64,000 bases of DNA from Patescibacteria group bacterium (GCA_041659765.1 JBAZXR010000001.1:44537-108536); one strand, 5' to 3'. Counted from the first letter of the stretch, positions 565 to 60,156 are shown. Notes: a model not told the origin generated them from the letters alone. Translations and numbers: made by a program.

Positions 565-1257
565 ATGGAAAAAAACATCCAGGAATTGGCAGACAAGTTG
601 GAAATCCCATTTAAAGCCGACGGTCACCTCGAGCAATCTGTTGTACACCGTTCGTATTTGAACGAGCATCCTGATTTTCCGCTTGATCATAACGAACGAT
701 TGGAGTTTCTCGGAGACGCCGTGCTCGAGCTCGTCGTCACGGAGAACCTCTATATCAACCACCCGAATCCGGAAGGGGATTTGACCACCTGGCGTTCAGC
801 GCTCGTGAATGGGGATTCCTTGGGCGAAATTGCCCAGGCACTGGGTATTGAGCCATATCTATATTTGTCCAAGGGCGAAGAGAAGGACACGAACTCCAAA
901 GCCCGCAAGTATATTTTGGCGAATGCGATCGAGGCAATCATTGGCGCCATTTATTTGGACTTTGGCTGGGAGCTTTCGAAAACGTTCATCACTAAGAACG
1001 TTCTTTCGCATCTGCCTAACATTATTGAAAAGCGTTTGTTTGCGGATCCTAAGAGTGTGTTCCAGGAATCTTCCCAGTCCAAACTTGGCATTACACCAAG
1101 CTATAAAGTTTTGAGTGAAACCGGTCCCGACCACGCAAAAATCTTCGTCGTCGGCGCGTTTCTTGGCAAGGACCTCGTGGCTCAGGCCAACGGATCGAGC
1201 AAACAAGAAGCCCAGGTAGCCGCTGCTCAGGCGGCAATACAGGCAAAAGGGTGGTAG
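565..1257 (+). CDS. rnc: Ribonuclease III
   Basis: 230 aa; RNase III signature ERLEFLGDAVLELVVTE; C-terminal dsRBD-like region. Confidence 0.9.
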   Translation: MEKNIQELADKLEIPFKADGHLEQSVVHRSYLNEHPDFPLDHNERLEFLGDAVLELVVTENLYINHPNPEGDLTTWRSALVNGDSLGEIAQALGIEPYLYLSKGEEKDTNSKARKYILANAIEAIIGAIYLDFGWELSKTFITKNVLSHLPNIIEKRLFADPKSVFQESSQSKLGITPSYKVLSETGPDHAKIFVVGAFLGKDLVAQANGSSKQEAQVAAAQAAIQAKGW

Positions 1258-1337
1258 AAACAAAAGAGAGATATCTCGTTAAAATTTGAGTCGGATTACC
1301 TCCTAAAAATTTTACCAAAATATCTCTCTTTTGTTTC
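1257..1337. repeat. Intergenic hairpin repeat copy 1: 18-bp perfect stem (GAAACAAAAGAGAGATAT / ATATCTCTCTTTTGTTTC), 45-nt loop containing GAGTCGGATTACCTCCTAA
   Basis: Read directly: arms at 1257-1274 and 1320-1337. It is wedged between the rnc stop codon and the tRNA-Arg 3' end. The loop 19-mer recurs at 4 other loci. Confidence 0.8.
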
Positions 1338-1414
1338 TGGTGCGGTGTGAGGGATTCGAACCCCCGACCCTCTGCTTCGAAGGCAGATGCTCTATCCAGC
1401 TGAGCTAACACCGC
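1338..1414 (-). tRNA. tRNA-Arg (anticodon TCG)
   Basis: Reverse complement folds as a cloverleaf: acceptor GCGGTGT/ACACCGC, anticodon stem TCTGC/GCAGA, loop CTTCGAA, T-loop GGTTCGAATCC, 3' CCA encoded. Confidence 0.8.
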
Positions 1415-1481
1415 AGAACCACTGAATACTAGCAAAAATCTTGACCTCAGTCAAAGCATTTGGCATACTTTCCACCGTTAC

Positions 1482-1557
1482 GCATCGGTAGCTCAGTTGG
1501 TAGAGCAGTAGACTCTTAATCTATTGGTCGCGGGTTCGAGTCCCGCCCGGTGCACCA
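1482..1557 (+). tRNA. tRNA-Lys (anticodon CTT)
   Basis: GCATCGGTAGCTCAGTTGGTAGAGC...anticodon loop CTCTTAA...GGTTCGAGTCC...CCA; canonical cloverleaf. Confidence 0.85.
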
Positions 1558-1563
1558 CAAGCC

Positions 1564-1591
1564 GATCCCCGAAAGGGGGTCGTTTTGTTTT
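1564..1591 (+). terminator. Intrinsic terminator after tRNA-Lys
   Basis: GATCCCC-GAAA-GGGGGTC hairpin followed by GTTTTGTTTT. Confidence 0.6.
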
Positions 1592-1594
1592 CTG

Positions 1595-1600
1595 ATATAC
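1595..1600 (+). promoter_or_regulatory. -10-like TATACT about 10 nt upstream of the ATG at 1611 (leaderless-type promoter)
   Basis: TATACTgtacacaatATG; no Shine-Dalgarno sequence; the pattern recurs at several genes in this window. Confidence 0.35.
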
Positions 1601-1610
1601 TGTACACAAT

Positions 1611-1817
1611 ATGTCTCCACTTCTTTTAGTTGGTATCGTCCTGGCCGGTGTTCCCGCGCTTCTTATTCTGGGATTTGCGTCGTATATCTTTATCGGGTTC
1701 GTGACTGATGATAAAGACGCCAAGTCCATTTTCCAGCTTGCTCTGATTATTATGGGCATCGGCGTCGTGTTGATTATTGCCCACATTGCCGGAACCGTTA
1801 TCCAGGTGACACCGTAG
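1611..1817 (+). CDS. Small hydrophobic membrane protein (hypothetical)
   Basis: 68 aa with two predicted TM helices; lies between a terminator and proS. Confidence 0.5.
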   Translation: MSPLLLVGIVLAGVPALLILGFASYIFIGFVTDDKDAKSIFQLALIIMGIGVVLIIAHIAGTVIQVTP

Positions 1818-1843: not shown

Positions 1844-3100
1844 ATGCGCTACTCCCAACTCTTTTCGAAATCTTCTAAGAACCGGCCTGGCGATGCGGAT
1901 TCCGTGAATGCGCGGTATCTGGTGCAGGGCGGATTTGTCCACCAGGAAATGGCCGGTGTTTATTCTTGGCTGCCACTCGGCTTGCGCGTTTTGCGTAACG
2001 TGGAAAAGATCGTACGTGAGGAGATGAACTCACTTGGCGGTCAGGAGATTTTGATGACTGCGCTCCAGCCTAAAGAGAACTGGCAGAAGACTAACCGTTG
2101 GGATTCAGTTGACGTGCTTTTTAAAGTTCCGAGCCAGACTGGTAAGGAATACGGTCTCGGCCCAACTGCTGAGGAGCTCGTCACTCCGCTAGTGCAGGAA
2201 TTCGTTAAGTCCTACAAAGACTTGCCGTTGGCTGTCTATCAAATTCAAACAAAGTTCCGCGATGAGCTCCGCGCCAAGAGCGGCGTGCTTCGTGGTCGAG
2301 AGTTCCTAATGAAGGACATGTACTCGTTCCATACATCCGTCGAGGATTTCGAACGCTTCTACGAACAGGCCAAGCAGGGATACCTGAAGGCCTACTCGCG
2401 AATGGGACTAGACGCGAAAGTTACCGAATCTTCCGGTGGTTCATTCTCGAAGAAAGCCTCTCATGAGTTCCAGGTTGAAACCCCTGCCGGCGAAGATGAT
2501 TTGATTCTCTGTCGCAACTGTTCGTTCGCTCAAAACACGGAGATCGCCACGGTAAAGGCCGGTGACGCCTGCCCAAACTGTAAGGGTGAGCTGGTCGCGA
2601 CAAAGGGGATAGAGGTTGGAAACATTTTTGATTTGTCCGACAGATTCTCTAAAGACTTTAACTTTGTGGTGCAGGGCGAAGACGGAAAGTCTATGCCGAT
2701 TCTCATGGGCTGTTACGGCATTGGCGTGTCTCGACTCGTTGGCGCTATTGTCGAAGCTTCCCATGACGATAAGGGAATTATTTGGCCGAAGGCTGTGGCT
2801 CCATTTGCCGTAAACTTGGTTACGCTAAACGCCAAGAGCGCCGAGGTTCAGAAATCAGTCGATGAGGCTGCTGAGAAGCTGTACGTCGAGCTTTCCGGAA
2901 AGGGGATTGACGTTCTTTGGGATGACCGCGAGGGCGTTGCCCCTGGGGCGAAGTTCGCCGACGCTGATCTTGTGGGTATCCCGGTGCGGGTAGTGATTTC
3001 TGAGAAGTCTCTCGCTGCTGGTGGCGCAGAATGGAAGGAGCGCGCAGGTGGGGAGGCTAAGATTGTGCCTCTGGACGATGTGCTTACAGCCCTTAAGTAA
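1844..3100 (+). CDS. proS: Proline--tRNA ligase
   Basis: 418 aa; YLVQGGFVHQEMAGVYSWLPLGLRVL and class II aaRS motifs of ProRS. Confidence 0.9.
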   Translation: MRYSQLFSKSSKNRPGDADSVNARYLVQGGFVHQEMAGVYSWLPLGLRVLRNVEKIVREEMNSLGGQEILMTALQPKENWQKTNRWDSVDVLFKVPSQTGKEYGLGPTAEELVTPLVQEFVKSYKDLPLAVYQIQTKFRDELRAKSGVLRGREFLMKDMYSFHTSVEDFERFYEQAKQGYLKAYSRMGLDAKVTESSGGSFSKKASHEFQVETPAGEDDLILCRNCSFAQNTEIATVKAGDACPNCKGELVATKGIEVGNIFDLSDRFSKDFNFVVQGEDGKSMPILMGCYGIGVSRLVGAIVEASHDDKGIIWPKAVAPFAVNLVTLNAKSAEVQKSVDEAAEKLYVELSGKGIDVLWDDREGVAPGAKFADADLVGIPVRVVISEKSLAAGGAEWKERAGGEAKIVPLDDVLTALK

Positions 3101-3180
3101 ACGAAATCAAAATACTCCGTTCGGAACTGGAGTCGGATTACCTCCTAACAGTTCCTCGCGGAGTATTTTGTTTTCGTTTA
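3098..3180. repeat. Intergenic hairpin repeat copy 2: 22-bp stem (1 mismatch), loop with inner stem and GAGTCGGATTACCTCCTAA
   Basis: Arms at 3098-3119 (TAAACGAAATCAAAATACTCCG) and 3159-3180; starts at the proS stop codon. Confidence 0.8.
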
Positions 3181-3218
3181 CTTGTGGTAGAGTATTAATG
3201 TTTACCTTTGGAGGAAAC

Positions 3219-3541: not shown

Positions 3542-3553
3542 CTAAATTTGTTT

Positions 3554-6276: not shown

Positions 6277-6744
6277 TTACCGCCATGCCATGTATAGCCG
6301 GGCGATATCGAGCGCGATATTCTGAAATTCTTTGTCCTTCGCCTTTTCCATGTTTACCCATTCAGCAGGCCCTTCTTCAGGGTCTTCCCTGCTGATCTGC
6401 CAATCGCCGTCTACTTCTGCGGTGTAGATCAGCAGATGGACGTGGTAGGCCTTTTGGGTTGGATCGTAGTATGCGAAGTTCTCGAACATCTTCCAGAAGT
6501 TCACATTTTTGAGCTTGAGGCCGGTTTCTTCGAAGACTTCCCGAACCACTGCGTGTCCGGCAGATTCACCGGGTTCGATCCCGCCACCCGGCAAGAACAA
6601 CTTGCCGGTAAGCTTCATACGTATCAATAGAAGCCGATGCCCGCGTCGGACGAGCGCATACGCACTCGGCCGGAACTCCAGCTCATCCACGGGAACCTCG
6701 ATATAGCCACCCAACACACGCACACACTGAACGGTCTTTCCCAC
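6277..6744 (-). CDS. NUDIX hydrolase
   Basis: 155 aa; Nudix box GGGIEPGESAGHAVVREVFEETGL. Confidence 0.8.
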   Translation of the reverse strand: MGKTVQCVRVLGGYIEVPVDELEFRPSAYALVRRGHRLLLIRMKLTGKLFLPGGGIEPGESAGHAVVREVFEETGLKLKNVNFWKMFENFAYYDPTQKAYHVHLLIYTAEVDGDWQISREDPEEGPAEWVNMEKAKDKEFQNIALDIARLYMAWR

Positions 6745-6816
6745 GTTTTCTCCAAAACAAGGCCTTTTTTGTACTGCTCTTTTACTGAACGGTCAATTGC
6801 GCTATTAATACCCGGT

Positions 6817-7365
6817 ATGACTTACAAAATAATTGTCTACGGTCTTCCTGGGGCGGGGAAGGATACGCAGTGCGAATTACTCGCCAATATTCTTGGAATT
6901 CCGCACTTTTCTACGGGGCAGATTTTGCGGGATGAGATTGCCAAGGGGAGCGAGCTAGGCCTGCTCGTAAAACCCTATGTCGAGTCTGGAACCATGATCC
7001 CCAAGGGCGTGGCCACTGACATCTACAAAGACAAACTATTGTCCCCAGAAATTCAGAAGAGTGGATATATTGTGAATGGTTACCCCAGATCTGTGGATTC
7101 GTTGAAGACATATCTCGAGTTCGAGAAGCCAACGCATTTTATTCACCTAATTATTCCTGACGAGCTGGCTCGCCAACGTCTATCTGCTCGTGGCCGAGGT
7201 GATGATGTCTCTGAAGTGATCGAAACCCGTCTTCGCCGCTATTACGAAACCGAGAAAGCGGCGGCGGATTATGCTCGAGAGCATTCGACGGTTCAATTTA
7301 TCGAAATCAGCAGCTCAGCCTCCCCGGATGAGGTCACTAAAGTGCTCCTCGAACGTCTTAAATAG
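6817..7365 (+). CDS. Adenylate kinase-family NMP kinase (second, non-canonical paralog)
   Basis: P-loop GLPGAGKDTQ and GYIVNGYPRS (GFPR-like) motif. Start set at the ATG at 6817, because the longer listed ORF overlaps the divergent NUDIX gene. TATTAA box 10 nt upstream. Confidence 0.7.
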   Translation: MTYKIIVYGLPGAGKDTQCELLANILGIPHFSTGQILRDEIAKGSELGLLVKPYVESGTMIPKGVATDIYKDKLLSPEIQKSGYIVNGYPRSVDSLKTYLEFEKPTHFIHLIIPDELARQRLSARGRGDDVSEVIETRLRRYYETEKAAADYAREHSTVQFIEISSSASPDEVTKVLLERLK

Positions 7366-12648: not shown

Positions 12649-12652
12649 GTTC

Positions 12653-12690
12653 ACAGTAAGGGTCGACGCATGGGTCGACCCTTACTGTGA
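12653..12690. repeat. Perfect 16-bp palindromic hairpin (CACAGTAAGGGTCGAC / GTCGACCCTTACTGTG); the central 22-mer recurs inside leuS
   Basis: Read directly: arms at 12653-12668 and 12675-12690 with a 6-nt loop. Confidence 0.7.
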
Positions 12691-14496: not shown

Positions 14497-15365
14497 ACGA
14501 TCTGTTTGGTGACGATTACGAAGGCAATTATACCAACGATGATGAACCAATAGGTCAAGCTAGCATACCAAGCTTTAGGATGAAGCGGCGAAACGTGAAC
14601 TGTTCTGATGTTTCCGGCCTTATCTACGGCCCGTACGTTAAACGCCGAGCTGACCGATTGATCCTTGAGCGGGTAGGGATTAGTAACCCGCACCCACGGG
14701 GTGAAGAAGCCTAAAAGTCCGCCAGCTGGTTCTTGGATTTCATAATGGTCTATTCCAGTACCTTTGTCCTGCGCCACAAAGAAGACCGTCCAGGCATTTT
14801 TGTAGAGCGCTGGAATGTTTGATATTTCCGGGATAAATGGTTCCGGCGGAATGACGTCAGTAAGCGGAGGGATGGTGATGTTTCGGCGAACATCCGGTGC
14901 CAAGACATCTATGCTTGAGTTGCTGATGGAGATCTTTGCAGCTGTTCCTTGCCCGTCATTTTTAAGGAAGAGAGGATCTTTGATTTGAATAGTTCCTTGG
15001 CCTTGGCCAGCGGCGGTGAAGACGACAGAGAAGAGCAGTCCTCGAGCACCAGTGAACCCACCGGGCGTCATCCCGGCAAAATGAATTTCTTGGCCGTTGA
15101 CTTTTGGTTCCTCGACCCAATAGTTAATGATTGACCCGGTGGTGCGAACTTCTTTCACTGCAATAATCTCTTGGGGAAACGACAAAATACCTGAGAATGT
15201 ATTGATTGATTCATTTCCGGTGTTGATGGTGATGTCCGTTTGAAATTCGGCATTCTCGATGACTGATTTTTGTTCTGGGAGGACAGTAACTTGCGCAGCA
15301 AAAAGATTGAGCGGCGAGACAATCGCCGTGAGGGACATGACCACGATGATGTATAGGTATCGCAT
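14481..15365 (-). CDS. Secreted/anchored surface protein, putative cohesin-like domain protein (second)
   Basis: Signal peptide MRYLYIIVVMSLTAIV, beta-rich domain, C-terminal TM (WFIIVGIIAFVIV) with basic tail; same architecture as the neighbouring gene. Confidence 0.55.
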   Translation of the reverse strand: MRYLYIIVVMSLTAIVSPLNLFAAQVTVLPEQKSVIENAEFQTDITINTGNESINTFSGILSFPQEIIAVKEVRTTGSIINYWVEEPKVNGQEIHFAGMTPGGFTGARGLLFSVVFTAAGQGQGTIQIKDPLFLKNDGQGTAAKISISNSSIDVLAPDVRRNITIPPLTDVIPPEPFIPEISNIPALYKNAWTVFFVAQDKGTGIDHYEIQEPAGGLLGFFTPWVRVTNPYPLKDQSVSSAFNVRAVDKAGNIRTVHVSPLHPKAWYASLTYWFIIVGIIAFVIVTKQIVWRKR

Positions 15366-15367
15366 AG

Positions 15368-16429
15368 CTATCCTGTCCACCAATATGCAATGATACTTAT
15401 ATCAACCAAGTTCAAACGGCCATCGCCGTTACCGTGGCGAATTTCTAGAATTTTAAATGCGTCTGAGAGTTGCTCTTTGTACCAGTAGAGGCCAATGGAG
15501 AAATCTACTAAATTGACGCGTTGATCCTCATTGTAGTCGCCGGGCATGTAGATGATTGGGGCTGCGCCAAGGGTGAAAGACATGGGGAGACTGAGCGTGC
15601 TAGTCAGATTATTGAGGCTGGCCTGTGCGGTTACAGAGTATGCTCCTGCTAGTCTTAAGGCGGTCGTATTGAATGTAGCGGCGTAAGCACCGTTTGAATT
15701 TGCAGTTACCTGTTGCGTGGCTAGTAATGTTCCTGCGGGAGATGAGAGATTGATCGTGATGGCTGCCCTGGGGGTGCTTTGACCGGTGATTTTAAGCTGG
15801 TCTCCGGGCAAGATGACGGTGGAGACCGGGTTAATACTTGGAGAGATGAAGATATTTGGCGTGGTAACGGTGCCTCCGTTGGCCGTGAGGGTGACGGTTG
15901 TTAACGCCGAGAAGTTGCCAGCGCTATCCGTAGCTTGAAAACCAAAGGTATAGGTTCCGTTTATAAAATTATTCGCTTTAATCAAGAATTCGCCAACTGC
16001 ATCCGCCGTAGTGGTGCCAAATTTTTGTCCGTCTTTAAGGAGGGTGATCGGGCTGCTTGGATAGGCTAGTCCGGTAAAGATTTCATTAGTTGAAGAAACC
16101 ACCACGAGTGGAGTGGAACCGCCGCCGGTTGAGGCGATAGCTGAACATGAGGCAGTATTAAGTGTGCAGCTAGCTGAGCAGCTGATAGAGCCACCGGCGT
16201 AACCTTCAGTGACACAAGTATGGCTGTTCATGTTTGCGCCATCACAGTCTTCCCCAATCTGGATGATGCCGTCGCCACAGCCAAGCACTGTGGCCGTAAC
16301 AGTCACAGTTTCCGTGATGTCTGCTTTAGTTAATTCAACAAAACGCCAAACTCCCGCCGTTAGTAATATGACAGCGAGAGCTATGACTAAAAAACCATGT
16401 GGCCTGTGATTAGACTTGCGTCTTCGCAT
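15368..16429 (-). CDS. Surface protein with Cys-rich N-terminal region, Ig-like domains and a C-terminal dockerin-like domain
   Basis: C-terminus has two Ca-binding dockerin repeats, DYNEDQRVNLVD and GNGDGRLNLVD (pattern D-x-N-x-D-G-x-V-N-x-x-D). N-terminal TM/signal anchor. Confidence 0.6.
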   Translation of the reverse strand: MRRRKSNHRPHGFLVIALAVILLTAGVWRFVELTKADITETVTVTATVLGCGDGIIQIGEDCDGANMNSHTCVTEGYAGGSISCSASCTLNTASCSAIASTGGGSTPLVVVSSTNEIFTGLAYPSSPITLLKDGQKFGTTTADAVGEFLIKANNFINGTYTFGFQATDSAGNFSALTTVTLTANGGTVTTPNIFISPSINPVSTVILPGDQLKITGQSTPRAAITINLSSPAGTLLATQQVTANSNGAYAATFNTTALRLAGAYSVTAQASLNNLTSTLSLPMSFTLGAAPIIYMPGDYNEDQRVNLVDFSIGLYWYKEQLSDAFKILEIRHGNGDGRLNLVDISIIAYWWTG

Positions 16430-30800: not shown

Positions 30801-31567
30801 TTACGTTATCTACGGCGGACTCATCGCATCATCCAAGCGCAGATACAGTGACCTTTAATTTTGCACCCGCTCCGACTCAGCGAGGCACGCCCGGTACCGG
30901 GACTCCTGGAGGACTGCCGCCGGTCACTGCCCCTACCCCTGAGACGCCAGAGCCGTTGCCAGAGCCGTTGCCGGAGATCGTTACGCCTATTAGTTCTTTT
31001 CCGGAGGGTACCACTCTCGTACCGGGCGACTATGTACGAAGTCTGAGTTCTTCGACCGTGTATTTGATCACCTCCGCGGGCACGCGCCGGCCGTTTATGA
31101 ATGCGAAAGTATTTTTCACTTATATCTCGGACTTTTCGGCGGTGAAATTCGTGAGCGATTCGTTTATAGAGGCCTTCGTTGATGGCCAGCCGATGCCGCC
31201 AAAACCAGGAACTGTCCTCGTGAAAACGCCGAGCTCTGACAGGGTGTATGCGTTTGCACCAGAGGCGACTATTGAACATCCAGAAATCCGTTGGATTCAG
31301 GGCGAATCTCTCGCTCGAAATTTCTTTGGCCTTAACTGGGCTGACTATGTGATTGATCTTGACCAGCCGGCCATTGACCAGCTGCCTGTGGGCGAACCTC
31401 TGACGGAGACTGATGTTGTGGACTCGACTCAATTACTGCGCCGAGTAGATTTGGCTAGACGGGTTAGCGAGTTCATCAATTTTGCCTCTGTTCATCTTCC
31501 AGGCCTAGTTGAATGGGCTTCGATTGATACCGTTCACTTCCCATTCTGGCCGAAGTTCCACAAGTAA
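27872..31567 (+). CDS. Large secreted protein (1231 aa) with autotransporter-type PATR-like N-terminal motif, Calx-beta-like segment and YVTN-type beta-propeller repeats
   Basis: N-terminal TM/signal. RTWDGGGTDG...W..ANWS...PVSGDVVVFDG fits the passenger-associated repeat pattern. VTVTGVDDSEDDG is Calx-beta-like. Repeated ..LW/VW..... N.V..I...TG.. blocks. Pro-rich linker and unknown C-terminal domain. Confidence 0.7.
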   Translation: MPEPWLPFFANHRLHRIILLILVAITVPMLSVSLFLNQVLAVTRTWDGGGTDGTCGGGAGDGNKWSCAANWSADTVPVSGDVVVFDGTSTKDSTIDAGFAGTITSLSINSGYTGTITMARSLTMTSTYTQADGTFSQGAQTLTIAGNFAHTAGTFNANTGTVVLTGATPTLSGSTTFNNLYVATTTTSDVTLTLPASTTTVVSGATRLLASTHSDPVVNILTIVSSSSGVQASVDFQGSLTIFSAHVKDVNNINATQVHCYVDCVDDGNNTNIRFGEPGLARTTVSGNVTEAGSTATFTVALRGKPTANVIVPLSVSDATEASVSPASLTFTALNYTTPQTVTVTGVDDSEDDGGVSSTIVFGTATSVDSLYGVLDASDVSIFTEDDDQLAALVDFDNAALLTEEDVKGTAVWFDQTNQGEGTLKTGSGGAAVSLTGTKILPGCRATIGGVDFIISRLSPTVTGQVLLTDGVTRPENLHLVLADGAVTKIVCTIKPVNDVQLGGSSSSIAVRSTLFPGSGYTEGRVFTDNTNGRVWFTQTNSLPALKGISMTTGLETISTALTGETGNAVISHDSTRDTLWLSEYALNKVVAINAATGAYAFGTLGASSFTIAGSPWSIAYNPELDEIWVLTNDGHEVKRINPADGAVVGTVALSFSPNRIVYDSTQHAMWVEVDNTYSSSLIKLSATSGTFANVTESASLFPVPDVSASDYGSLLYDSSRNVLWETSYREADGVDKLNKIDASTGAVIGSYPTGAFTNAAALDPVTGNVLVAYSNYVTPPAEGGSAGVMEFDAATGERIATYTSSTGLVQSMARGTGNINWILDIIENELSQSVIGGAPVGKFYTTLTTSSSDVDIASGSTLSSVSASASEAGEIVSFALTFDGGNSYKVYGSWRVIASNKAGDHGGTDGVWYYRDDADAWTAAPSNAPAEAVSLAVENGPTHNRMTAGTLNGLGEDIFQQAGGFSTSTTSVGVSVTLSTADSSHHPSADTVTFNFAPAPTQRGTPGTGTPGGLPPVTAPTPETPEPLPEPLPEIVTPISSFPEGTTLVPGDYVRSLSSSTVYLITSAGTRRPFMNAKVFFTYISDFSAVKFVSDSFIEAFVDGQPMPPKPGTVLVKTPSSDRVYAFAPEATIEHPEIRWIQGESLARNFFGLNWADYVIDLDQPAIDQLPVGEPLTETDVVDSTQLLRRVDLARRVSEFINFASVHLPGLVEWASIDTVHFPFWPKFHK

Positions 31568-31575
31568 ACTTGGGG

Positions 31576-32478
31576 TTAAGCTAGCTTTGTAAGTTTGGCG
31601 ACGAAAAATCCTTCCATGCGTTCGTCCGGCAGCATGGTGATAGTTTTATGCGCAGTTTTTTTCGCATTTTGCAGCGGGAGCGAGATTTCAACGGGCTTCA
31701 TCTGAGGGAACTCAGTAATGAGCCATTCAACCATTTGTTCGTTTTCTTCGGGTGCAAGGGTGCAGGTTGAATAGACAAGCGTTCCACCTGGCTTGAGGCA
31801 GCCCACGGCGGCCCGTAAGAGCCGACGCTGGAGCTTTGCGTGCTCGACGATGTTCTTTTCTGACCAAAAACCAAACGTCCGTTTTTCATTGATGTTGATC
31901 CGGCCTTCGGCTGAACACGGGGCATCGACCAGTATCTTATCGAAGTATTCCGGGAATTCTTTATGCAAAAGTGTGCCGTCCGTATGTCTCGCGTTCACTT
32001 TTGCGCTTTGAACGCGAATAGTGTTTTCGAGTTTTTGAAAGCGGACCTCATTGTCTTCTGTGGCAATAATCTCGGCGGCATTATTCGTCATCATGGCTAT
32101 TTCTGTTGTCTTTGACCCCGGTGCAGCACAAAGATCGAGGATCCTTTCTCCGGCTCTTGGTTCAAGGATAACCGGAGGGATCATTGAAGAGATTCCTTGT
32201 AAATATATTTTCCCGTCTTTCGCGAGCGGGTGTCCTAGAAGTTCATCGTCTGTTCGATTCTTGATTAGAAACGCGTGTGGCACGGCCTTGATCCTTTCGA
32301 ACATGATTTGTTCATCTCGAAACACAGCCATCACTGCTTCGTCTGAAGATTTGAGTGTATTGACGCGGAGGGTGGGTTTTTGGGCTACGCTAAAAGCCCG
32401 GAGCATCGCGGAATAGGTTCCGGTGCCCCATTGTTTGGTTAGTCGGTCGCGCAGGGCGTTAGGGAGAGGATCGCGCAT
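31576..32478 (-). CDS. rRNA cytosine-C5 methyltransferase, NOL1/NOP2/Sun (RsmB/RsmF-like) family
   Basis: SAM-binding ILDLCAAPGSKT, catalytic DAPCS and PGGTLVYSTCT motifs. Start set at the ATG immediately after the upstream stop (TAAcATG); the longer start at 32526 would overlap the upstream gene by 47 nt. Confidence 0.8.
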   Translation of the reverse strand: MRDPLPNALRDRLTKQWGTGTYSAMLRAFSVAQKPTLRVNTLKSSDEAVMAVFRDEQIMFERIKAVPHAFLIKNRTDDELLGHPLAKDGKIYLQGISSMIPPVILEPRAGERILDLCAAPGSKTTEIAMMTNNAAEIIATEDNEVRFQKLENTIRVQSAKVNARHTDGTLLHKEFPEYFDKILVDAPCSAEGRININEKRTFGFWSEKNIVEHAKLQRRLLRAAVGCLKPGGTLVYSTCTLAPEENEQMVEWLITEFPQMKPVEISLPLQNAKKTAHKTITMLPDERMEGFFVAKLTKLA

Positions 32479-38915: not shown

Positions 38916-40316
38916 ATGAATAAGGGGGCTGACGACGATTGGGTTGACGAGGCAGAGTTCGGCGATGGGTCGGAAATTGAATCCACCTTTCGTCCCTCGG
39001 ATGCACTCCGGTTTCTGTCTTTTCAGCGCGAGCTTGAATCGATCGAACGCCTCTGGGCCGCCTACAAGCGGCACCGGAAGCGCGGGGCGAAGATGAAGTC
39101 CGCTTTCTACCACGCGTGGAAGACGGTGCATCGGAGCGGGGAAGACGCTCTACCGTCGCTCGGCGCCAGAGATTTCTGGAGCTTGATCGTTGGTCGGACG
39201 GACTATTCGCAGCTGTACGCCGACACCATCGTGAGCGAGTACGCTCATCCGTTCAGGAAGAAACTGCGGGCTCACAACGGAGCAGCCAACCGGGTGAGTC
39301 CGGTAAAATTGCTTCAGTTGTGGATCCGGACCCGCGACCGCGTAGATCGACTCGGCCGTTTGGCGTGTTTCGAGGCGAAAAGAAACTACGTCTTCGGTTC
39401 ACAGTTCTCACAGATCCAGATCGCGGATCCTGACCAGTGGATTTCTGACGACGTCGTTGCCATCGACGAACTTTCACTCAACCGACTGTTCGTGCGCGAC
39501 GCTTCTCAAGACGTGTATACGGTGTTTGTGCTTGATACGCGTAAATATAATCGGCTCGTCAAGAGCAAGGTTCGGGTGACGCTGTCGTATGACGAGGCAA
39601 AGCGGTGGTTTGACGAGTGGACTGCTGTGGCACCCACTCATCATCTCGTGAAGATGGAGGAGCGTACCTGTCGGGTAGTGCGGGTGAAGGCCAAGAAGAA
39701 TCGTCCGGAGCGTCTGTACTACGTGGAAGATGATGATCGCCGCAAGCGTTCATTCTCCCGACTGCGGAAGTACGAACACCTCGCTTCCACTTGGGAGGAG
39801 GCGCACCCCGAAGAAGGCGTAGCGCACCCGCGCATCAACGACAGCCGCGGGATGCTTCTCACCGTTGTCTCGATTCACGAGGGTGATGAGCTCCGTCTCC
39901 CCACGCGTTCATGCGCGCTCGCACTCAAGCGGATCGCCAAACGGCGTATGTGGTCGAAGGCTCCGCTCTCGGTGCTTAGTGAGCAAGCACGGCCGCTCCG
40001 TCGTTTGAAAGACGCTGAAGGGACCCACCGCGACTCGAATCCTGATTACTGGGACGCGAAGATCATCGGCAACTACCGCTGGAAGGACGATGATCGGTTT
40101 GTCGAAGTGCTGGTGGAGCAGAAGTTCACCACGCTTCAAGACCGCATCAACGAGGAAAATGCCACGGACGACTTGAACCACGGCGTGCGTCGGGGGAAGC
40201 AGATCCTTCGGCTCCTCAAGTCCTACTTCCCGGTGGAGATCTATTCGGTCGATTGGGACTCCCAAGCGGTGCAGGACAGACTCCTCCGCTACTGGGAAGA
40301 GCGTTTCAGTGATTGA
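38916..40316 (+). CDS. Hypothetical Arg-rich protein (466 aa), GC-rich (~62%) orphan gene
   Basis: Long uninterrupted ORF with GGGGGGAG upstream. Strongly elevated GC relative to its neighbours. Flanked by the ndk terminator and hairpin repeat copy 3. No family recognised. Confidence 0.55.
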   Translation: MNKGADDDWVDEAEFGDGSEIESTFRPSDALRFLSFQRELESIERLWAAYKRHRKRGAKMKSAFYHAWKTVHRSGEDALPSLGARDFWSLIVGRTDYSQLYADTIVSEYAHPFRKKLRAHNGAANRVSPVKLLQLWIRTRDRVDRLGRLACFEAKRNYVFGSQFSQIQIADPDQWISDDVVAIDELSLNRLFVRDASQDVYTVFVLDTRKYNRLVKSKVRVTLSYDEAKRWFDEWTAVAPTHHLVKMEERTCRVVRVKAKKNRPERLYYVEDDDRRKRSFSRLRKYEHLASTWEEAHPEEGVAHPRINDSRGMLLTVVSIHEGDELRLPTRSCALALKRIAKRRMWSKAPLSVLSEQARPLRRLKDAEGTHRDSNPDYWDAKIIGNYRWKDDDRFVEVLVEQKFTTLQDRINEENATDDLNHGVRRGKQILRLLKSYFPVEIYSVDWDSQAVQDRLLRYWEERFSD

Positions 40317-40395
40317 TCGTAACCGTGCCCCGGGCTCGAAGCCTGGGGCGCGGTTCCTCTTTTTTTAAGGCTCGTGTACTCTATTCAAGGGCGCA

Positions 40396-40456
40396 GAAAG
40401 TATTCGAAAAAATCTGTTAGGAGGTAATCCGACTCCAGATTTTTGCGAATGCTTTC
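40396..40456. repeat. Intergenic hairpin repeat copy 3 (loop motif in reverse orientation: TTAGGAGGTAATCCGACTC)
   Basis: Arms GAAAGTATTCGAAAAAATCTG / CAGATTTTTGCGAATGCTTTC (2 mismatches); the loop 19-mer lies 50 nt upstream of the next ATG. Confidence 0.8.
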
Positions 40457-40485
40457 GAAGCCCGATATCTGTTGAACCCAATCCT

Positions 40486-41032: not shown

Positions 41033-42331
41033 ATGAACATTTTGAAAGTCACGGGTGGAAAACCGCTTCACGGTTCAGTCAAAATTGCCGGTGCAAAGAA
41101 TGCCGCATCAAAAATGATGATCGCGTGCTTGCTGACTGCTGACGAAGTCACGCTCGAGAACGTGCCACTGCAGCAGGAGTCTGAAATCGCTCGCGAACTC
41201 ATTACCATGCTCGGCGCGAAGACTGAACTAGTCGACCACACCCTGAAGATTCAGGTGAAAGAGATCGCTACGACTTCAGCTATGCAACTGTCACGCAAGA
41301 ACCGCCTGGCGATTCTCGCGCTTGCGCCGTTGCTTCATCGTGCGGGGGAGGGCTATGTCCCAACCCTCGGTGGCGACAAAATTGGGCCTCGACCAGTGAA
41401 TTTTCATATTGATGTCCTTGAGAAAATGGGTGCAACTATTGAAGCGGATACTGAAGGGTACCGAGCAACGGTGAAAGGCGGTCTCAAAGGAACGCTGATT
41501 GAACTGCCATATCCATCAGTAGGTACGACTGAAACTGCGATTTTGGCTGGCGTGCTCGCGAAGGGTCGAACAGTGATTAAGAACGCGGCCATTGAATCCG
41601 AGATTCTCGATCTCATTTTGATGCTCCAGAAGATGGGCGCGATTATTGAGATGGGTGCTGGTCGTCATATTGAAATTACTGGGGTCGAAAAATTGCACGG
41701 CTGTACGCATCGCATTTTGCCGGATCGTATGGAGGCGGCGAGCTATGCTTCAATGGCACTTGCGACTCGTGGTGAGATCTTCTGCGAGGGTGCAGAACAT
41801 CGAGATATGATCACTTTTCTGAATGCTGTCCGACGAATGGGCGGGGAGTACGTTGTTGAAGAAAGCGGTATTCGTTTTATCGGCTCAAAGAAATATAACG
41901 GTTTGCAGATTGAAACCGATACGCATCCCGGTTTTATGACTGATTGGCAGCAACCGCTTGTCGTGGCGTTGACGCAGGCCGAGGGAACGAGCGTGGTACA
42001 CGAAACGGTTTTTCAGGAAAGATTCGCGTACGCAGAAGAACTCGTAAAGATGGGCGCGGATATTACGTTGTTCGAGAATTGTCTCGGCGAGGTGTCATGT
42101 CGCTTTAAGGACCAGAATTACAAGCACTCCGCAGTCATTAAGGGACCGACGGCGTTGAAGCCTGCGACTGAACTTAAAGTGCCAGATATCCGTGCTGGTC
42201 TTGCATATGTCATCGCCGCGCTCGTTGCTGACGGGGAGTCGACGCTGACTGGCATCGAGCATCTTGAGCGCGGGTACGAGGATTTGTTTGGTAAGCTTCG
42301 ATCAGTGGGTGCCGATATCTCTGTTGAATAA
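41033..42331 (+). CDS. murA: UDP-N-acetylglucosamine 1-carboxyvinyltransferase
   Basis: MNILKVTGGKPLHGSVKIAGAKNAA N-terminus; EPSP-synthase fold; ATG 1 nt after the upstream stop. Confidence 0.9.
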   Translation: MNILKVTGGKPLHGSVKIAGAKNAASKMMIACLLTADEVTLENVPLQQESEIARELITMLGAKTELVDHTLKIQVKEIATTSAMQLSRKNRLAILALAPLLHRAGEGYVPTLGGDKIGPRPVNFHIDVLEKMGATIEADTEGYRATVKGGLKGTLIELPYPSVGTTETAILAGVLAKGRTVIKNAAIESEILDLILMLQKMGAIIEMGAGRHIEITGVEKLHGCTHRILPDRMEAASYASMALATRGEIFCEGAEHRDMITFLNAVRRMGGEYVVEESGIRFIGSKKYNGLQIETDTHPGFMTDWQQPLVVALTQAEGTSVVHETVFQERFAYAEELVKMGADITLFENCLGEVSCRFKDQNYKHSAVIKGPTALKPATELKVPDIRAGLAYVIAALVADGESTLTGIEHLERGYEDLFGKLRSVGADISVE

Positions 42332-42341
42332 TTTTCTTCCT

Positions 42342-42416
42342 GGGACGCAGAATGTTTTCGGAAAAATTGTTAGGAGGTAATCTGACACCAATTTTTACGA
42401 GAACATTCGTAGTCCC
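42342..42416. repeat. Intergenic hairpin repeat copy 4 (28-bp imperfect stem; loop TTAGGAGGTAATCTGACAC)
   Basis: Arms GGGACGCAGAATGTTTTCGGAAAAATTG / CAATTTTTACGAGAACATTCGTAGTCCC; the loop lies 50 nt upstream of the next ATG. Confidence 0.8.
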
Positions 42417-42438
42417 AAAAAAAGCGTGGACAAAAACT

Positions 42439-43119
42439 ATGTTCTTATCTCTTCTCTTCACATCGCCATTTCTCGCTTTGGCCTGGGCCACGGCGTTGAT
42501 TTTGTCGCTCACTGTCCACGAGTTCGCGCACGCGCTCGTGGGGAAGTGGAGAGGAGACGATACCGCTGAACAGCTGGGGAGACTGACGTTGAACCCGCTA
42601 GCCCATCTCGATATCGCCGGCACGCTTATGTTACTTATTGTTGGTTTTGGTTGGGCTAAGCCGGTGCCATTTAATCCTACTCGCCTCAAGAATCCGCTGG
42701 CCGATGGAATTGCCATCGCGCTCGCTGGCCCCTTCGCCAACCTTATTTTGGCTGTTATTGCAGCCGGAGTTTTTCACGGACTCGCTAAGTCAGGGTCGCT
42801 CGATCCTAATTCTATCTTGCCGGCGTTCTTGATTTTTGTGCTGCTCGTGAACATGCTTTTACTTTTCTTTAACCTTATTCCAGTTCCACCGCTCGATGGC
42901 TCGAAGGTCCTCGATGCGGCGCTCGTGCATGGTAACGCGCTTCAGGCTCGCGACTGGTTGGAGGTGAATGGTCCGAAGATTCTGCTGGGTTTGGTTATTC
43001 TTTCTTTGGTGACTCCGTTTAATGTTTTTGTGGTGGTGCAGGCACCAGCCACCATCGCCTGCGATCAGCTCTCTCAAACGTCATGCCTGGGTCTTCTCGA
43101 GCAATATCTTGGAGAATAG
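42439..43119 (+). CDS. Site-2 protease family zinc metalloprotease (peptidase M50)
   Basis: HEFAHAL (HExxH) and NLIPVPPLDG motifs; polytopic membrane protein. Start moved to the ATG at 42439, downstream of the repeat. Confidence 0.8.
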   Translation: MFLSLLFTSPFLALAWATALILSLTVHEFAHALVGKWRGDDTAEQLGRLTLNPLAHLDIAGTLMLLIVGFGWAKPVPFNPTRLKNPLADGIAIALAGPFANLILAVIAAGVFHGLAKSGSLDPNSILPAFLIFVLLVNMLLLFFNLIPVPPLDGSKVLDAALVHGNALQARDWLEVNGPKILLGLVILSLVTPFNVFVVVQAPATIACDQLSQTSCLGLLEQYLGE

Positions 43120-57747: not shown

Positions 57748-57748
57748 T

Positions 57749-58183
57749 ATGGCAATTACTCTATCTAATTTACGCTCAGCTAAGGGTGCTCGCGCCCTGC
57801 CTAAGCGTGTAGGCCGCGGTCTTGGTTCTAAGGGAACCACCGCCGGTCGTGGTCAGAAAGGTCAAAGCTCTCGCTCCGGCGTGGGTGGACTTAAGCGTCT
57901 TGGTATGCGCCACACGCTGTTGGCCACTCCAAAGAAGCGTGGCTTCACGTCTTTGAGCGAAAAGCTGGTGTCTGTGAATATCGGCGAGCTCGAGAAGAAA
58001 ACAATTGCTAATGAAGTAGTTACTCCAAAGACACTCGTGGCTAAGGGATTGATTCCGAAGGGTTCTCACGCAGCTAAGATCCTGGGCGGTGGTGAGTTGA
58101 CGCACGCGATTGTGGTCAAGAACTGCGAGGTTTCAAAATCCGCAGCCGAGATGATCGCGAAGTTGGGCGGAAAGATTGAGTAA
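57749..58183 (+). CDS. rplO: 50S ribosomal protein L15 (directly follows rpsE; no rpmD/L30 gene)
   Basis: LSNLRSAKGARALPKRVGRGLGSKGTTAGRGQKGQ. Confidence 0.95.
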   Translation: MAITLSNLRSAKGARALPKRVGRGLGSKGTTAGRGQKGQSSRSGVGGLKRLGMRHTLLATPKKRGFTSLSEKLVSVNIGELEKKTIANEVVTPKTLVAKGLIPKGSHAAKILGGGELTHAIVVKNCEVSKSAAEMIAKLGGKIE

Positions 58184-58191
58184 CCATTCTT

Positions 58192-59466
58192 TTGAACGGT
58201 ATGAACGTATTCCTGCGGATCCTGAAGACGAAAGAGCTCCGGAACGGTCTGCTCTTCATGCTCCTCTGTGTCACGGTATTCCGTATTGCCGCGCACATTC
58301 CGGTGCCGGGGATTGATTCGTCCGGTCTTGAATCTCTTCTGGCAGGAAACCAGTTTCTTGGGCTTTTGAACGTTTTTTCCGGCGGCACGCTGACGAGCTT
58401 TTCGATCGTGGCGCTTGGTGTTGGTCCCTATATCACGGCATCCATCATTTTCCAGCTGCTCGGAATGATTTTTCCGTCTGTAGAGGAAATGCAACAGGAA
58501 GAACAGGGTAGACAGAAGATTAACCGCTGGACGCGTTTGCTGACGGTTCCGCTTTCGTTCCTTCAGGGCTACAGCATCCTGAAGCTTCTTCAGCAGTCCA
58601 GCGCATCGCTCGGAACTCAGCTGACCTTCTCTACCATGGATTATTTGCTCGCCATGCTTTCCATGATGGCTGGGACGATTTTTCTTATGTGGTTGGGGGA
58701 GCTTATCAGCGAGCGCAAGATGGGGAACGGTCTTTCGATCATGATTTTCTCCGGTATTATTGCTTCCATGCCAGGTTTTGTGGCGAAATCGTTTGCGGCG
58801 AGCACCAGCGCGGACACGACGAATATTATTCTCTTCGTGGCGTTGACGCTCGTGACGGTTATTGGCGTTGTCTACGTGAGCGAGGCCGTGCGTAACTTGC
58901 CGGTGCAATATGCCCGCGGTGGTGGCGCAGGTTCAACCGTGAACTCGTCCTTGCCACTCCGTATCAACATGGGCGGTATGATTCCTATTTTGTTTGCCCT
59001 CTCCTTGATTGTGCTTCCTCCGCTTGTGGCGCAGTTCTTTGTGAATGCTCGAACGGAGATCATACAGCAGATTGCTACACAGACCGTCACGCTTTTTGGG
59101 AACAATTTGTTCTACGGAGTTGTTTACTTCATTCTAGTGTTTTCCTTCACCTTCTTCTATTCATCGGTGGTGTTTAAGCCAGAGCAGGTGGCCGAGAACC
59201 TCCAGAAGCAGGGTGGATTCATCCCCGGTGTTCGGCCCGGAGAGCAGACGGCTAAGTATCTCCAGTGGGTCACTAATCGTCTCTTGCTGATTGGCGCGCT
59301 TTTCTTGAGCATAATCGCGGTTCTCCCAGTCTTCATGCAGGAAATCACCGGTACTCAGAATCTGGTGGTTGGCGGTTCGTCCGTCATCATCGTTGTGTCT
59401 GTCATTGTCGATATGGTGAAACAGGTTGAGGCTCAGCTGACCATGCGTAGCTACGACAACAAGTAA
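58192..59466 (+). CDS. secY: Preprotein translocase subunit SecY
   Basis: 424 aa; 10 TM helices; SecY signature. Confidence 0.95.
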   Translation: MNGMNVFLRILKTKELRNGLLFMLLCVTVFRIAAHIPVPGIDSSGLESLLAGNQFLGLLNVFSGGTLTSFSIVALGVGPYITASIIFQLLGMIFPSVEEMQQEEQGRQKINRWTRLLTVPLSFLQGYSILKLLQQSSASLGTQLTFSTMDYLLAMLSMMAGTIFLMWLGELISERKMGNGLSIMIFSGIIASMPGFVAKSFAASTSADTTNIILFVALTLVTVIGVVYVSEAVRNLPVQYARGGGAGSTVNSSLPLRINMGGMIPILFALSLIVLPPLVAQFFVNARTEIIQQIATQTVTLFGNNLFYGVVYFILVFSFTFFYSSVVFKPEQVAENLQKQGGFIPGVRPGEQTAKYLQWVTNRLLLIGALFLSIIAVLPVFMQEITGTQNLVVGGSSVIIVVSVIVDMVKQVEAQLTMRSYDNK

Positions 59467-59472
59467 TATGGA

Positions 59473-59501
59473 AGCAGCCCTTCAGGGCTGTTTTCTTTTT
59501 T
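59473..59501 (+). terminator. Intrinsic terminator after secY
   Basis: AGCAGCCC-TTCA-GGGCTGTT followed by TTCTTTTTT. Confidence 0.65.
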
Positions 59502-59532
59502 ACTATTAGCAGTTATCATCCCCCAGTAGCTT

Positions 59533-60084
59533 ATGCATAGAATATTCATCTTGGGGCCGCAGGGGAGTGGGAAGGGGACGCAGGCCAAGAAATTGTCAGC
59601 CTTCCTCGGGATACCGTACCTATCCATGGGCGATCTTTTGAGAGAAGAGGCAAAGGGAGAGGGCGAGCTTTCTCAAAAGGTGCGGGCAATCGTGGAGACT
59701 GGTAGTTTAGTATCGGACGTTGTGGCTGAAGCAGTACTCAGGAAGCGTTTGGCAGAGCCGGATGTGGCGAATGGATATATTTTGGACGGCTTCCCGCGGA
59801 ACTTTGAACAGATGAAGGCGTTTGTGGGATTTGATCAACCAACAGCAGTTATCGTGATCGACATACCAAAGCGTGAATCACGGGCTCGCTTACAGAACCG
59901 AGCAATCACGGAAGGCCGCACGGATGACACACCAGAGGTCATCGAGAAACGACTCGGCATCTATAGTACAGATACCGTTCCGATTATTGAGGAATACAAG
60001 AAGCTTGGTGTCGTGCGAGAAGTTGACGGGATGGGAACCATTGAAGAAGTAGCTGAGAGAATTCAACGGCTTTTTGTTTTATAG
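59533..60084 (+). CDS. adk: Adenylate kinase
   Basis: GPQGSGKGTQA P-loop; GYILDGFPRN. Confidence 0.9.
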   Translation: MHRIFILGPQGSGKGTQAKKLSAFLGIPYLSMGDLLREEAKGEGELSQKVRAIVETGSLVSDVVAEAVLRKRLAEPDVANGYILDGFPRNFEQMKAFVGFDQPTAVIVIDIPKRESRARLQNRAITEGRTDDTPEVIEKRLGIYSTDTVPIIEEYKKLGVVREVDGMGTIEEVAERIQRLFVL

Positions 60085-60087
60085 GGT

Positions 60088-60156
60088 CTACGAATGTTCT
60101 CGTAAAAATTTGGAGTCGGGTTACCTCCTAACAAATTTTTCCGAAAACATTCTTCG
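60088..60156. repeat. Intergenic hairpin repeat copy 5 (loop GGAGTCGGGTTACCTCCTAACA)
   Basis: Arms CGAATGTTCTCGTAAAAATTT / AAATTTTTCCGAAAACATTC (2 mismatches); lies between adk and map. Confidence 0.8.

Follow-up and report, generated by a model that had tools for sequence, protein, structure and literature searches.

Among described repeats, the closest counterparts of the hairpins reported here are the REP/BIME/REPIN elements of proteobacteria, RAYT-mobilized short imperfect palindromes that are extragenic, occur in both orientations, often follow stop codons or lie between convergent genes, occasionally form inverted doublets and are gained or lost between relatives. Their transcribed copies act as 3'-end stabilizers or resemble terminators, and recognition is of a specific strand in single-stranded form, properties comparable with those considered below. 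MITEs of the Correia (CREE) and ERIC types are similar in length (approximately 70–150 nt), in forming long hairpins in mRNA, in lying between operon genes and in showing presence/absence polymorphism; Correia elements are substrates of RNase III and alter the stability of the flanking mRNA. A further likeness is to bidirectional intrinsic terminators, in which an A-tract, a hairpin and a U-tract lie between two 3' ends. Cuckoo/CcsR (RSs0680) and RsaE-type small RNAs carry a variable-stem hairpin module with a conserved CCUCC-containing motif, present in several copies per genome (PMC4615179).

The window, by which is meant the whole 64-kb stretch of DNA analysed, contains five occurrences of the 19-mer GAGTCGGATTACCTCCTAA, all capping the window's longest hairpins. 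Three are exact (1288-1306 and 3130-3148 on the plus strand, 40417-40435 on the minus strand), one has two mismatches (42370-42388, minus strand) and one a single mismatch (60113-60131, plus strand), and no further site was found on either strand of the window when up to 3 mismatches were allowed. None of 100 dinucleotide shuffles yielded a match (0 expected). The inverted arms around each 19-mer are 28–35 nt long and 82–91% complementary, the five hairpins all fall within the top six short-range inverted repeats of the 64 kb by length, the inverted-repeat search found no other long AT-rich hairpin in the window, and folding z-scores of the five range from -4.8 to -10.6. A covariance model built from the family (R1) retrieved the five copies and nothing else in the window, in agreement with the five-hairpin family with a common 19-mer proposed in a sequence-only reading of this DNA. 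Each copy was assigned to its better-folding strand, the one reading UUAGGAGGUAAUCCGACUC, as follows.

1256 to 1338, minus strand: copy 1, terminator type, with arms at 1256-1287 and 1307-1338 and tip at 1288-1306.
3095 to 3183, minus strand: copy 2, terminator type, with arms at 3095-3129 and 3149-3183 and tip at 3130-3148.
40389 to 40463, plus strand: copy 3, D family, without a U tract, with arms at 40389-40416 and 40436-40463 and tip at 40417-40435.
42341 to 42417, plus strand: copy 4, D family, with arms at 42341-42369 and 42389-42417 and tip at 42370-42388, carrying two changes.
60082 to 60162, minus strand: copy 5, D family, with arms at 60082-60112 and 60132-60162 and tip at 60113-60131, carrying one tetraloop change.

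The names first given to the neighboring genes (RNase III, class-II aaRS, MurA, Adk and Map) were confirmed. Copy 1 takes up all the space between rnc, which stops with TAG at 1255-1257, and the 3' end of a minus-strand tRNA-Arg gene (1338-1414) with its own promoter on that strand. In copy 2 the 5' arm includes the TAA stop codon of the aaRS gene (3098-3100), and an A-tract and a T-tract make up the outer arms. Copy 4 separates murA, whose stop codon is at 42329-42331, from the gene of an M50 peptidase (ATG at 42439), and has an ortholog in MAG CAYGEQ01 (L006). Copy 5 is inside the secY-adk-map operon; the base of its hairpin is the stop codon of adk (TAG, 60082-60084), and a 12-nt spacer leads to the map ATG (60175). 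The proposal that every copy starts within 0–10 nt of a stop codon fails for copy 3, which begins at 40389 after a 466-aa gene ending at 40316 and an ordinary terminator at 40321-40368; the start codon of an FMN-reductase gene (40486) follows 23 nt downstream.

A further 18 copies were found in related MAGs, giving 23 copies from four related genomes, all of them intergenic and approximately 10 of them between convergent genes. Copy 5 was recovered in an independent Logan assembly, so that the copies are not artefacts of assembly. No match to the hairpin family was found in Rfam, phage, plasmids or the literature: with Rfam 15 only tRNAs reached the gathering threshold, in line with the first reading, which recognized no described element, and the next-best matches were plant miRNA-precursor models far below threshold, representing generic long-hairpin matches. 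The five loci, in a small Uhrbacteria-like Patescibacteria genome, are members of a genuine family of dispersed repeats that is intergenic and previously undescribed.

Comparison of the 23 copies revealed that the tip is the same throughout whilst the stems are very different. On the better-folding strand a variable basal stem of approximately 20–25 bp leads, usually through a G.A/U.G internal loop, into an A/U-rich inner stem of 7 bp and then the tip, and the supposed loop is itself a mini-helix (AG-GA-GG[UAAU]CC-GA-CU) with pairs A-U, G-C, G.A, A.G, G-C and G-C closed by a UAAU tetraloop. Covariation favors this register, on the strand opposite to that of the GGAG/CTCC mini-hairpin initially suggested. 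GGAGG and CCGAC are invariant, and variation within the tip is restricted to the tetraloop, to unpaired positions and to compensated or wobble pairs; one of the changes in copy 4 preserves a G.U pair on the plus strand, and a swap of A3-U18 to G3-C18 in a copy from a related genome (L021) supports the mini-helix. Across the family 27 of 31 pairs were changed on both sides and 94.9% of cells were paired, compared with 63% in shuffles, none of 500 of which reached this, bearing out the expectation that related genomes would show a conserved tip with covarying stems. Even within a single genome the stems of different copies have almost nothing in common. This is the reverse of the REP arrangement, in which conservation falls on the stem and on a 5' GTAG, with loops or spacers varying; GTAG is absent here. 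The elements also differ from REPs in apparently numbering tens rather than hundreds of copies, in being approximately twice as long and AT-rich, and in that neither the window nor the surroundings of copies revealed a RAYT gene.

The two strands are not equivalent. All 20 copies tested folded better on one strand, the mean advantage being 7.6 kcal/mol, and this was the same strand whichever way the copy faced genes or replication; on it, non-Watson-Crick cells comprised 25 G.U and 27 G.A compared with 3 A.C and 3 C.U. GC skew indicates a single replichore across the window, yet the copies there run -, -, +, +, -. With respect to genes the two orientations are about equally frequent. For co-directional copies the well-folding strand is antisense to the operon in about half, which is a point against the elements acting as RNA.

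Filled and empty orthologous sites were observed at the gdh-rhodanese junction, the gap between a 1231-aa gene and rsmB, and the adk-map junction, the last being filled in L013 and L021/L022 and empty in L020 (TAG-GT-ATG) and L023 (TAG-AT-ATG); such presence/absence bears out the suggestion of a REP/MITE-type dispersed repeat. Between species, D-family copies from sites that are not orthologous differ by as little as 3–4 nt, less than positional orthologs do, and paralogs have a species-specific paired state in common; copies have been homogenized between sites by concerted evolution. A purely selfish, non-autonomous element, a MITE or REP-like relic with no host function whose single-stranded DNA is moved by an enzyme (HUH/RAYT-type or other) with its gene elsewhere in the genome, would account for this polymorphism and for D-family copies that are nearly identical between unrelated loci and between species. 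On that reading gene ends would simply be places where insertions are tolerated, and the occurrence of both orientations, the low GC content of the elements (29–43% compared with approximately 51% for the genome), one back-to-back inverted doublet (L014) of the kind seen in BIME/REPIN arrangements, and a hairpin strand independent of host transcription and replication, as expected of a single-stranded transposition intermediate, would all follow. Such a relic is nevertheless rather unlikely. A gene for a transposase, HUH or RAYT protein was found neither in the approximately 64-kb window nor in the annotated flanks of related loci, and filled sites (gdh-rhodanese, adk-map) have neither target-site duplications nor conserved terminal repeats. 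Element ends differ between subfamilies, unlike Correia and ERIC elements with their conserved terminal inverted repeats, TA target duplications and full-length conservation. Integron attC sites, with conserved R/L core sites at the hairpin base and single-orientation arrays beside an integrase, are also distinct from elements conserved at the tip and scattered among housekeeping genes both ways. No decayed copies were seen in the window, although retrieval via the tip sequence may under-count them. Copy 1 differs from its ortholog in an Uhrbacteria MAG (L010) at 1 of 83 nt (98.8% identity), whereas the adjoining 3' end of rnc has frequent substitutions.

The relationship of the elements to transcription units also argues against a purely selfish origin. 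Outer arms consisting of A/T tracts were present in 8 of 10 convergent-site copies but in only 1 of 13 co-directional copies, such that U tracts accompany copies at transcription-unit ends and are missing from those within operons. At the rnc/tRNA-Arg junction an ordinary bidirectional terminator is present in L026, L027 and L028, and the element takes its position in the window and L010; on the 3' side of the aaRS gene, L028 has an ordinary bidirectional terminator, L026 has none and the window has copy 2. The suggestion of bidirectional terminators consequently holds in architecture and position for copies 1 and 2, which like most convergent-site copies have the A-tract, hairpin and U-tract layout, but not for copies 3–5, which have no U tract. 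Even the former are not standard intrinsic terminators, which have a GC-rich stem of 5–15 bp rather than an AT-rich one of 25–35 bp (stem GC 22–45% here) and lack a shared, structured 19-nt tip, and a consensus terminator scan did not call the element hairpins. These genomes also have ordinary terminators rich in GC, as directly upstream of copy 3 and upstream of L007:4748-4830.

The first reading listed several interpretations, of which the family itself, its covariation and its REP/MITE-like behavior stand and titration of ribosomes is not supported. We put at about even the chance that the approximately 75–90-nt elements are confined to one Uhrbacteria-like Patescibacteria clade and are REP/MITE-like portable hairpins acting once transcribed. 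Copies at unit ends would serve as intrinsic terminators, in places bidirectional, and as hairpins protecting 3' ends, replacing the ordinary terminators of relatives, whilst operon copies, which have no U tract, would stabilize the transcript between cistrons or mark it for processing, for instance by RNase III. Arms of this length and complementarity provide the approximately 20 bp or more of near-perfect double-stranded RNA expected of an RNase III substrate, and genes for RNase III (rnc, 565-1257) and RNase Y are both present; cleavage of the duplexes is putative. The family would spread, be lost and be homogenized between sites. A generic hairpin alone is insufficient, since the near-invariant tip would be left unexplained, and the tip is probably the handle of a trans-acting factor which would read it in single-stranded form, as RNA or single-stranded DNA, and copy, maintain or use the element.

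An improbable alternative is that the tip acts as an SD/anti-SD RNA element, in one orientation a super-SD binding the 16S 3' end (ribosome standby site, tether or mRNA stabilizer) and in the other an anti-SD seed masking ribosome-binding sites in the manner of cuckoo/CcsR or RsaE-type sRNAs. The tip includes a perfect AGGAGGU and complements the canonical bacterial 16S 3' tail, GGAUCACCUCCUUA, at 12 of 14 positions, although the tail of the host may differ, and genes downstream of copies 3–5 have no obvious SD of their own. Exposure of an SD or anti-SD by the loop was among the original interpretations, but the even split of orientations relative to genes does not suit it, and on the structurally selected strand GGAGG is base-paired with the equally invariant CCGAC, the A-U to G-C swap again indicating a helix rather than an exposed seed. 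The tips of copies 3–5 lie 44–51 nt from the next start codon (corrected from 43–50 nt), with none at SD distance. In the window no other site resembles the 19-mer or its complement at up to 3 mismatches, and no promoter and terminator defining an sRNA unit were found around copies. Hairpin families with conserved anti-SD loops are known (PMC4615179). No Rfam family was hit, the cuckoo model RF02344 named in that paper included. Each of those sRNAs is an independent gene comprising 2–4 short hairpins, has a promoter and a terminator of its own, and carries its C-rich loop unpaired and always on the same strand, whereas the elements are single long hairpins abutting stop codons either way, with a favored strand that is SD-like and paired. 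The ribosome-titrating idea is thus poorly supported.

A DNA-level site, that is, a 19-bp protein-binding or recombination sequence in a cruciform-forming palindrome (for gyrase, topoisomerase or a nucleoid protein as in REP/BIME, or as a recombination target), would suit a function independent of gene orientation, the enrichment of copies between convergent genes where positive supercoils accumulate, the anecdotal proximity of some copies to gyrB and topA, and a tip invariant in sequence beyond its structure, but is very improbable given that neither the excess of G.U and G.A over A.C and C.U nor the uniform one-strand folding advantage would be selected in a duplex or symmetric cruciform, that tip variation obeys base-pairing rules, and that the match of U tracts to genomic context indicates RNA.

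By analogy only, the AGNN-capped substrate hairpins of yeast Rnt1p and the origin hairpins of HUH nucleases follow the same design, in which an apical signal stays invariant on a stem free to vary and is read by a protein whose action falls within the loop or a set distance away. The tip matches neither AGNN nor the known nonanucleotide nick sites, and no such enzyme was identified here. Tentatively, and as a possibility that we regard as unlikely, a factor dedicated to the elements in this CPR clade would dock on the tip mini-helix, with its tandem G.A pairs and UAAU tetraloop, and the elements would be portable terminators, modules that take the place of ordinary ones and spread via a strand-specific single-stranded intermediate. 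If so, these minimal-genome bacteria would have either a new class of hairpin-mobilizing enzyme or a new system in which a factor assists the formation or processing of 3' ends.

The five hairpins of the window, which a sequence-only reading had picked out by inspection, proved to be real elements carrying exact or near-exact matches to the 19-mer GAGTCGGATTACCTCCTAA.

1256-1338, minus orientation: copy 1, exact 19-mer at 1288 (+)
3095-3183, minus orientation: copy 2, exact 19-mer at 3130 (+)
40389-40463, plus orientation: copy 3, exact 19-mer at 40417 (-)
42341-42417, plus orientation: copy 4, 19-mer with two mismatches at 42370 (-)
60082-60162, minus orientation: copy 5, 19-mer with one mismatch at 60113 (+)

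The 19-mer was matched in none of 100 dinucleotide shuffles of the window, and folding z-scores of the five copies against shuffled sequence ranged from -4.8 to -10.6. Each copy was flanked by inverted arms of 28-35 nt (82-91% complementary), all five ranked within the window's top six short-range inverted repeats by length, and copy 5 was also present in an independent Logan assembly. The adjoining genes encode RNase III, a class-II aminoacyl-tRNA synthetase, a 466-aa orphan, FMN reductase, MurA, an M50 peptidase, Adk and Map, with tRNA-Arg directly adjoining copy 1. The claim that every copy starts within a few nucleotides of a stop codon did not hold for copy 3, which lies 73 nt past the upstream stop codon, beyond an ordinary terminator, and the distances from conserved segment to start codon, first given as 43-50 nt, were measured as 44-51 nt. 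A 40-nt near-perfect palindrome with GTCGAC at 12651-12690 (20-nt arms, 95% complementary, no spacer) is unrelated to these hairpins.

Exact scans of one genome per species, using the 19-mer or a 17-mer as query, identified 15 further hairpin copies, nine in the Candidatus Uhrbacteria MAG MFD02832.bin.1.179 and six in the MAG CAYGEQ01. A covariance model built from the hairpin family, R1, added copies with variant tips (the tip being the conserved 19-nt apical segment) in loci from related genomes, bringing the family to 23 copies.

L007, 1742-1824: copy with variant tip
L021, 692-774: copy with variant tip, the same copy also in L022
L023 (Uhrbacteria MAG), 15364-15446: copy with variant tip

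Matches to the 19-mer or 17-mer in the genome of L009, at two places in the metagenome scan and at one in the viral scan had no hairpin and were set aside as chance matches. When 15-21-kb stretches were searched with R1, no copy turned up in the L020 genome (Adk 89% identical) or in the more distant relatives L024-L025 (Adk 60-66% identical) and L026-L028 (RNase III 73-84% identical), and the family therefore appears to be restricted to a narrow clade. CAYGEQ01 (L001-L003, L006, L013, L015) is titled 'uncultured Gammaproteobacteria bacterium', a label that looks wrong because the MAG is collinear with the Patescibacteria window (78-81% identical in nucleotides) and has the same hairpin family. 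In the Uhrbacteria MAG the conserved genes map, aspS and recO (L023) are called in two pieces, probably through frameshift errors of long-read assembly, and its sequence details are therefore treated with caution. No Rfam family matched the hairpins: searches of the window and 14 loci at gathering and permissive thresholds returned tRNAs only, and sub-threshold matches to the hairpin were to generic long-hairpin (miRNA-precursor) models. Two copies used as blastn queries matched nothing in phage and plasmid collections, and the searchable literature held nothing relevant on repeats, hairpins or REP in CPR, Patescibacteria or Uhrbacteria.

We give about even chances to a reading of the family as REP/MITE-like portable hairpins, some being bidirectional terminators with A/U tracts and others intercistronic hairpins without a U tract, with the tip as a handle for a putative factor. 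In copies between convergent genes, and in copy 2, the outer arms are an A tract on one side and a T tract on the other, arranged as in a bidirectional intrinsic terminator; at least seven of 12 positions were T in 8 of 10 copies at convergent sites versus 1 of 13 at co-directional sites. Position relative to relatives is consistent with this role. At the rnc/tRNA-Arg junction, the more distant relatives carry ordinary bidirectional terminators directly at the tRNA 3' end, and the element occupies exactly the same place in the window and in the Uhrbacteria MAG.

L026, rnc/tRNA-Arg junction: two GC-rich hairpins
L027, rnc/tRNA-Arg junction: ACAAAAAAATCCCC-TTGAAA-GGGGATTTTTTTG
L028, rnc/tRNA-Arg junction: AT-rich 13-bp hairpin

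Since tRNA-Arg has its own predicted promoter, copy 1 constitutes the tRNA-Arg 3' trailer and its only terminator candidate. Copy 1 differs from its ortholog at only 1 of 83 nt, although the neighbouring 3' end of rnc is often substituted. Similarly, the place 3' of the aminoacyl-tRNA synthetase gene is taken by an ordinary terminator in L028 and by copy 2 in the window. The outermost pairs of many hairpins are stop codons on both strands, e.g. AAGTAAAC...GTTTACTT and TAGGG...CCCTA (window 3095-3183 and 60082-60162; L001, L003, L008, L011 and L012), so that genes from either side come to their end inside the element. Copies with A/U tracts would act as bidirectional terminators and 3'-end hairpins. 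The suggestion that the elements are bidirectional terminators does not extend to the D family (copies 3-5 and related-stem copies elsewhere), which has GGGAC...GUCCC bases and no U tract and lies in operons or 5' regions. Such copies may be intercistronic hairpins and possible targets of RNase III, the gene for which is present. Ordinary GC-rich terminators occur alongside family hairpins in the same genomes. The idea that the tip was inserted into terminators already in place found no support, as ordinary terminators are short and GC-rich and the whole hairpin is absent from empty sites; no hairpin with a related stem and no tip was seen. Promoter predictions and inspection of the flanks showed that the well-folding strand is not consistently preceded by a promoter, which argues against an independent sRNA with its own promoter.

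Occupancy of three orthologous sites differed between genomes.

gdh-rhodanese: empty in the window (TAA-T-ATG); filled in the Uhrbacteria MAG (TAA-T-[77-nt hairpin]-15 nt-ATG)
1231-aa gene/rsmB convergent gap: 8 nt with no terminator hairpin in the window (31567-31576); ordinary terminator plus family hairpin in the Uhrbacteria MAG
adk-map: filled in the window, L013 and L021; empty in L020 and L023 (TAG-GT-ATG and TAG-AT-ATG)

D-family copies at non-orthologous sites of different species were as few as 3-4 nt apart, versus 7-9 between positional orthologs, and one pair that is U-A in both window copies is C-G in the Uhrbacteria MAG copy and the two from CAYGEQ01; sequence comparison thus indicates concerted evolution or replacement among D-family copies. 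At adk-map, 12 pairs had changed on both sides between the L021 and window copies with pairing kept. Element GC is 29-43%, against ~51% for the genome. Between dprA and topA in L014 (883-1045), a pair of family members whose stems are unrelated lies inverted back to back across a 4-nt gap, with tips complementary to each other in a BIME/REPIN-like manner. The proposal of a REP/MITE-like mobile repeat is therefore supported by the filled and empty sites and by near-identical dispersed copies; against it, no target duplication or conserved termini were visible on comparing filled with empty sites, and no transposase or other partner gene lay beside the copies, the neighbours all being housekeeping genes. 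The family would nevertheless have spread between sites. A purely selfish element mobilised as ssDNA draws on the same site turnover, and on the strand preference described below, and is considered unlikely. A ~3-kb insertion in the Uhrbacteria MAG (L023, 7001-10001) splits the conserved secY-adk junction and encodes a 258-aa protein without Pfam match together with a fragment of a reverse transcriptase (RVT_1, E=1e-8). This reverse transcriptase was rejected as a partner, being adjacent to no element; Rfam detected no group II intron RNA there, and it may therefore be of DGR, retron or defence type.

When the 23 copies were aligned on the strand reading UUAGGAGGUAAUCCGACUC, one common hairpin emerged, with 94.9% of cells paired versus 63% in shuffles and 36-51% with slid partners, and both-side changes at 27 of 31 pairs. 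The expectation that the loop would be conserved while stems covary was borne out in the related genomes, the tip being nearly invariant. The supposed loop is itself a helix, in a register other than the mini-hairpin first proposed: A3-U18, G4-C17, G5.A16, A6.G15, G7-C14 and G8-C13 with a UAAU tetraloop on top. Variation is limited to the tetraloop, unpaired positions 1, 2 and 19, and two pairs, A3-U18 (G-C in L021, broken as A.A in copy 4) and G8-C13 (G.U in copy 4); GGAGG and CCGAC are invariant in all copies. In about half of the copies tandem G.A recurs directly under a 7-bp A/U-rich inner stem. A K-turn or box C/D motif was ruled out by inspection because no 3-nt bulge lies beside the G.A pairs. 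An SD/anti-SD translational device, proposed earlier as a ribosome-titrating role, would account for the SD-like sequence of the tip, but orientation is random, GGAGG is paired with a partner, CCGAC, that is just as invariant, and start codons are absent nearby, making this role improbable; SD usage in the window is too noisy for inferring the 16S 3' tail. The portable-hairpin reading instead takes the invariant structured tip as a recognition handle by which a putative trans-acting factor would bind one strand in single-stranded form.

The strand carrying the SD-like sequence folded better as RNA in all 20 copies tested (mean 7.6 kcal/mol), and in 18 of 20 with DNA parameters. Stem non-Watson-Crick cells on this favoured strand comprised 25 G.U and 27 G.A versus 3 A.C and 3 C.U, the G.U and G.A cells reading as C.A and C.U mismatches on the opposite strand; by our own count, independent events ran ~18 to 3 for G.U versus A.C. 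The one nucleotide that separates copy 1 from its ortholog gives U.G versus C-G on the favoured strand. A replication-strand explanation was rejected because GC skew is positive over the whole window while orientations alternate (-,-,+,+,-). At co-directional sites ~5 independent copies are sense and ~4 antisense. The favoured strand tracks neither replication nor transcription, and the single-stranded form of one strand is therefore under selection or required, as a property of the element and not of host context. This asymmetry makes a duplex-DNA or cruciform protein site very improbable.

Other sites in the window were also recorded. A ~420-nt insert at 60957-61380 separates map from a 68-aa gene, the two being contiguous in four relatives (L020, L021, L023, L024). 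Its minus strand has small ORFs (61048-61311) and, at 61358-61330, a strong promoter-like site (TTGACA-17-TAGCAT with TG), and a bidirectional terminator spans 60966-60998. One possibility is a small gene in antisense, another an sRNA cassette; CAYGEQ01 likewise has extra sequence at this site. At 63834-63911, just 5' of the aspS start (~63940), a leader fragment resembling a T-box (GGTGGCACCGCGG) precedes a 24-bp hairpin, its Rfam T-box score being 21 bits against a gathering threshold of 93 with only the model's 3' end matched. A second adenylate-kinase-family gene (6637-7365, 242 aa, ADK domain E=1.6e-29) is present besides the adk of the ribosomal-protein operon.

We rate the family as dispersed intergenic palindromic repeats. 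REP/BIME, Correia-type hairpins and bidirectional terminators are closest in working, but defining features of each are missing: the conserved stem and GTAG of REP and the TIR and TSD of MITEs are lacking, and terminators differ in having neither the long AT-rich stems nor the common tip. TIGR-Tas arrays are tandem, whereas these hairpins are dispersed. The only useful literature analogue found, the cuckoo/CcsR RNAs, is alike only in a CCUCC-containing motif on variable hairpins. REP/MITE logic is inverted here, with a nearly invariant tip on freely varying stems, one strand selected whatever the gene direction, and ordinary terminators replaced at orthologous positions. Patescibacteria/CPR genomes are streamlined. 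The family offers a handle on how these uncultured bacteria end and process transcription units, on the spread of small non-coding elements where no transposase is visible and, as the main source of interest, on which protein reads the conserved tip, and R1 can be applied to any CPR genome or metatranscriptome.
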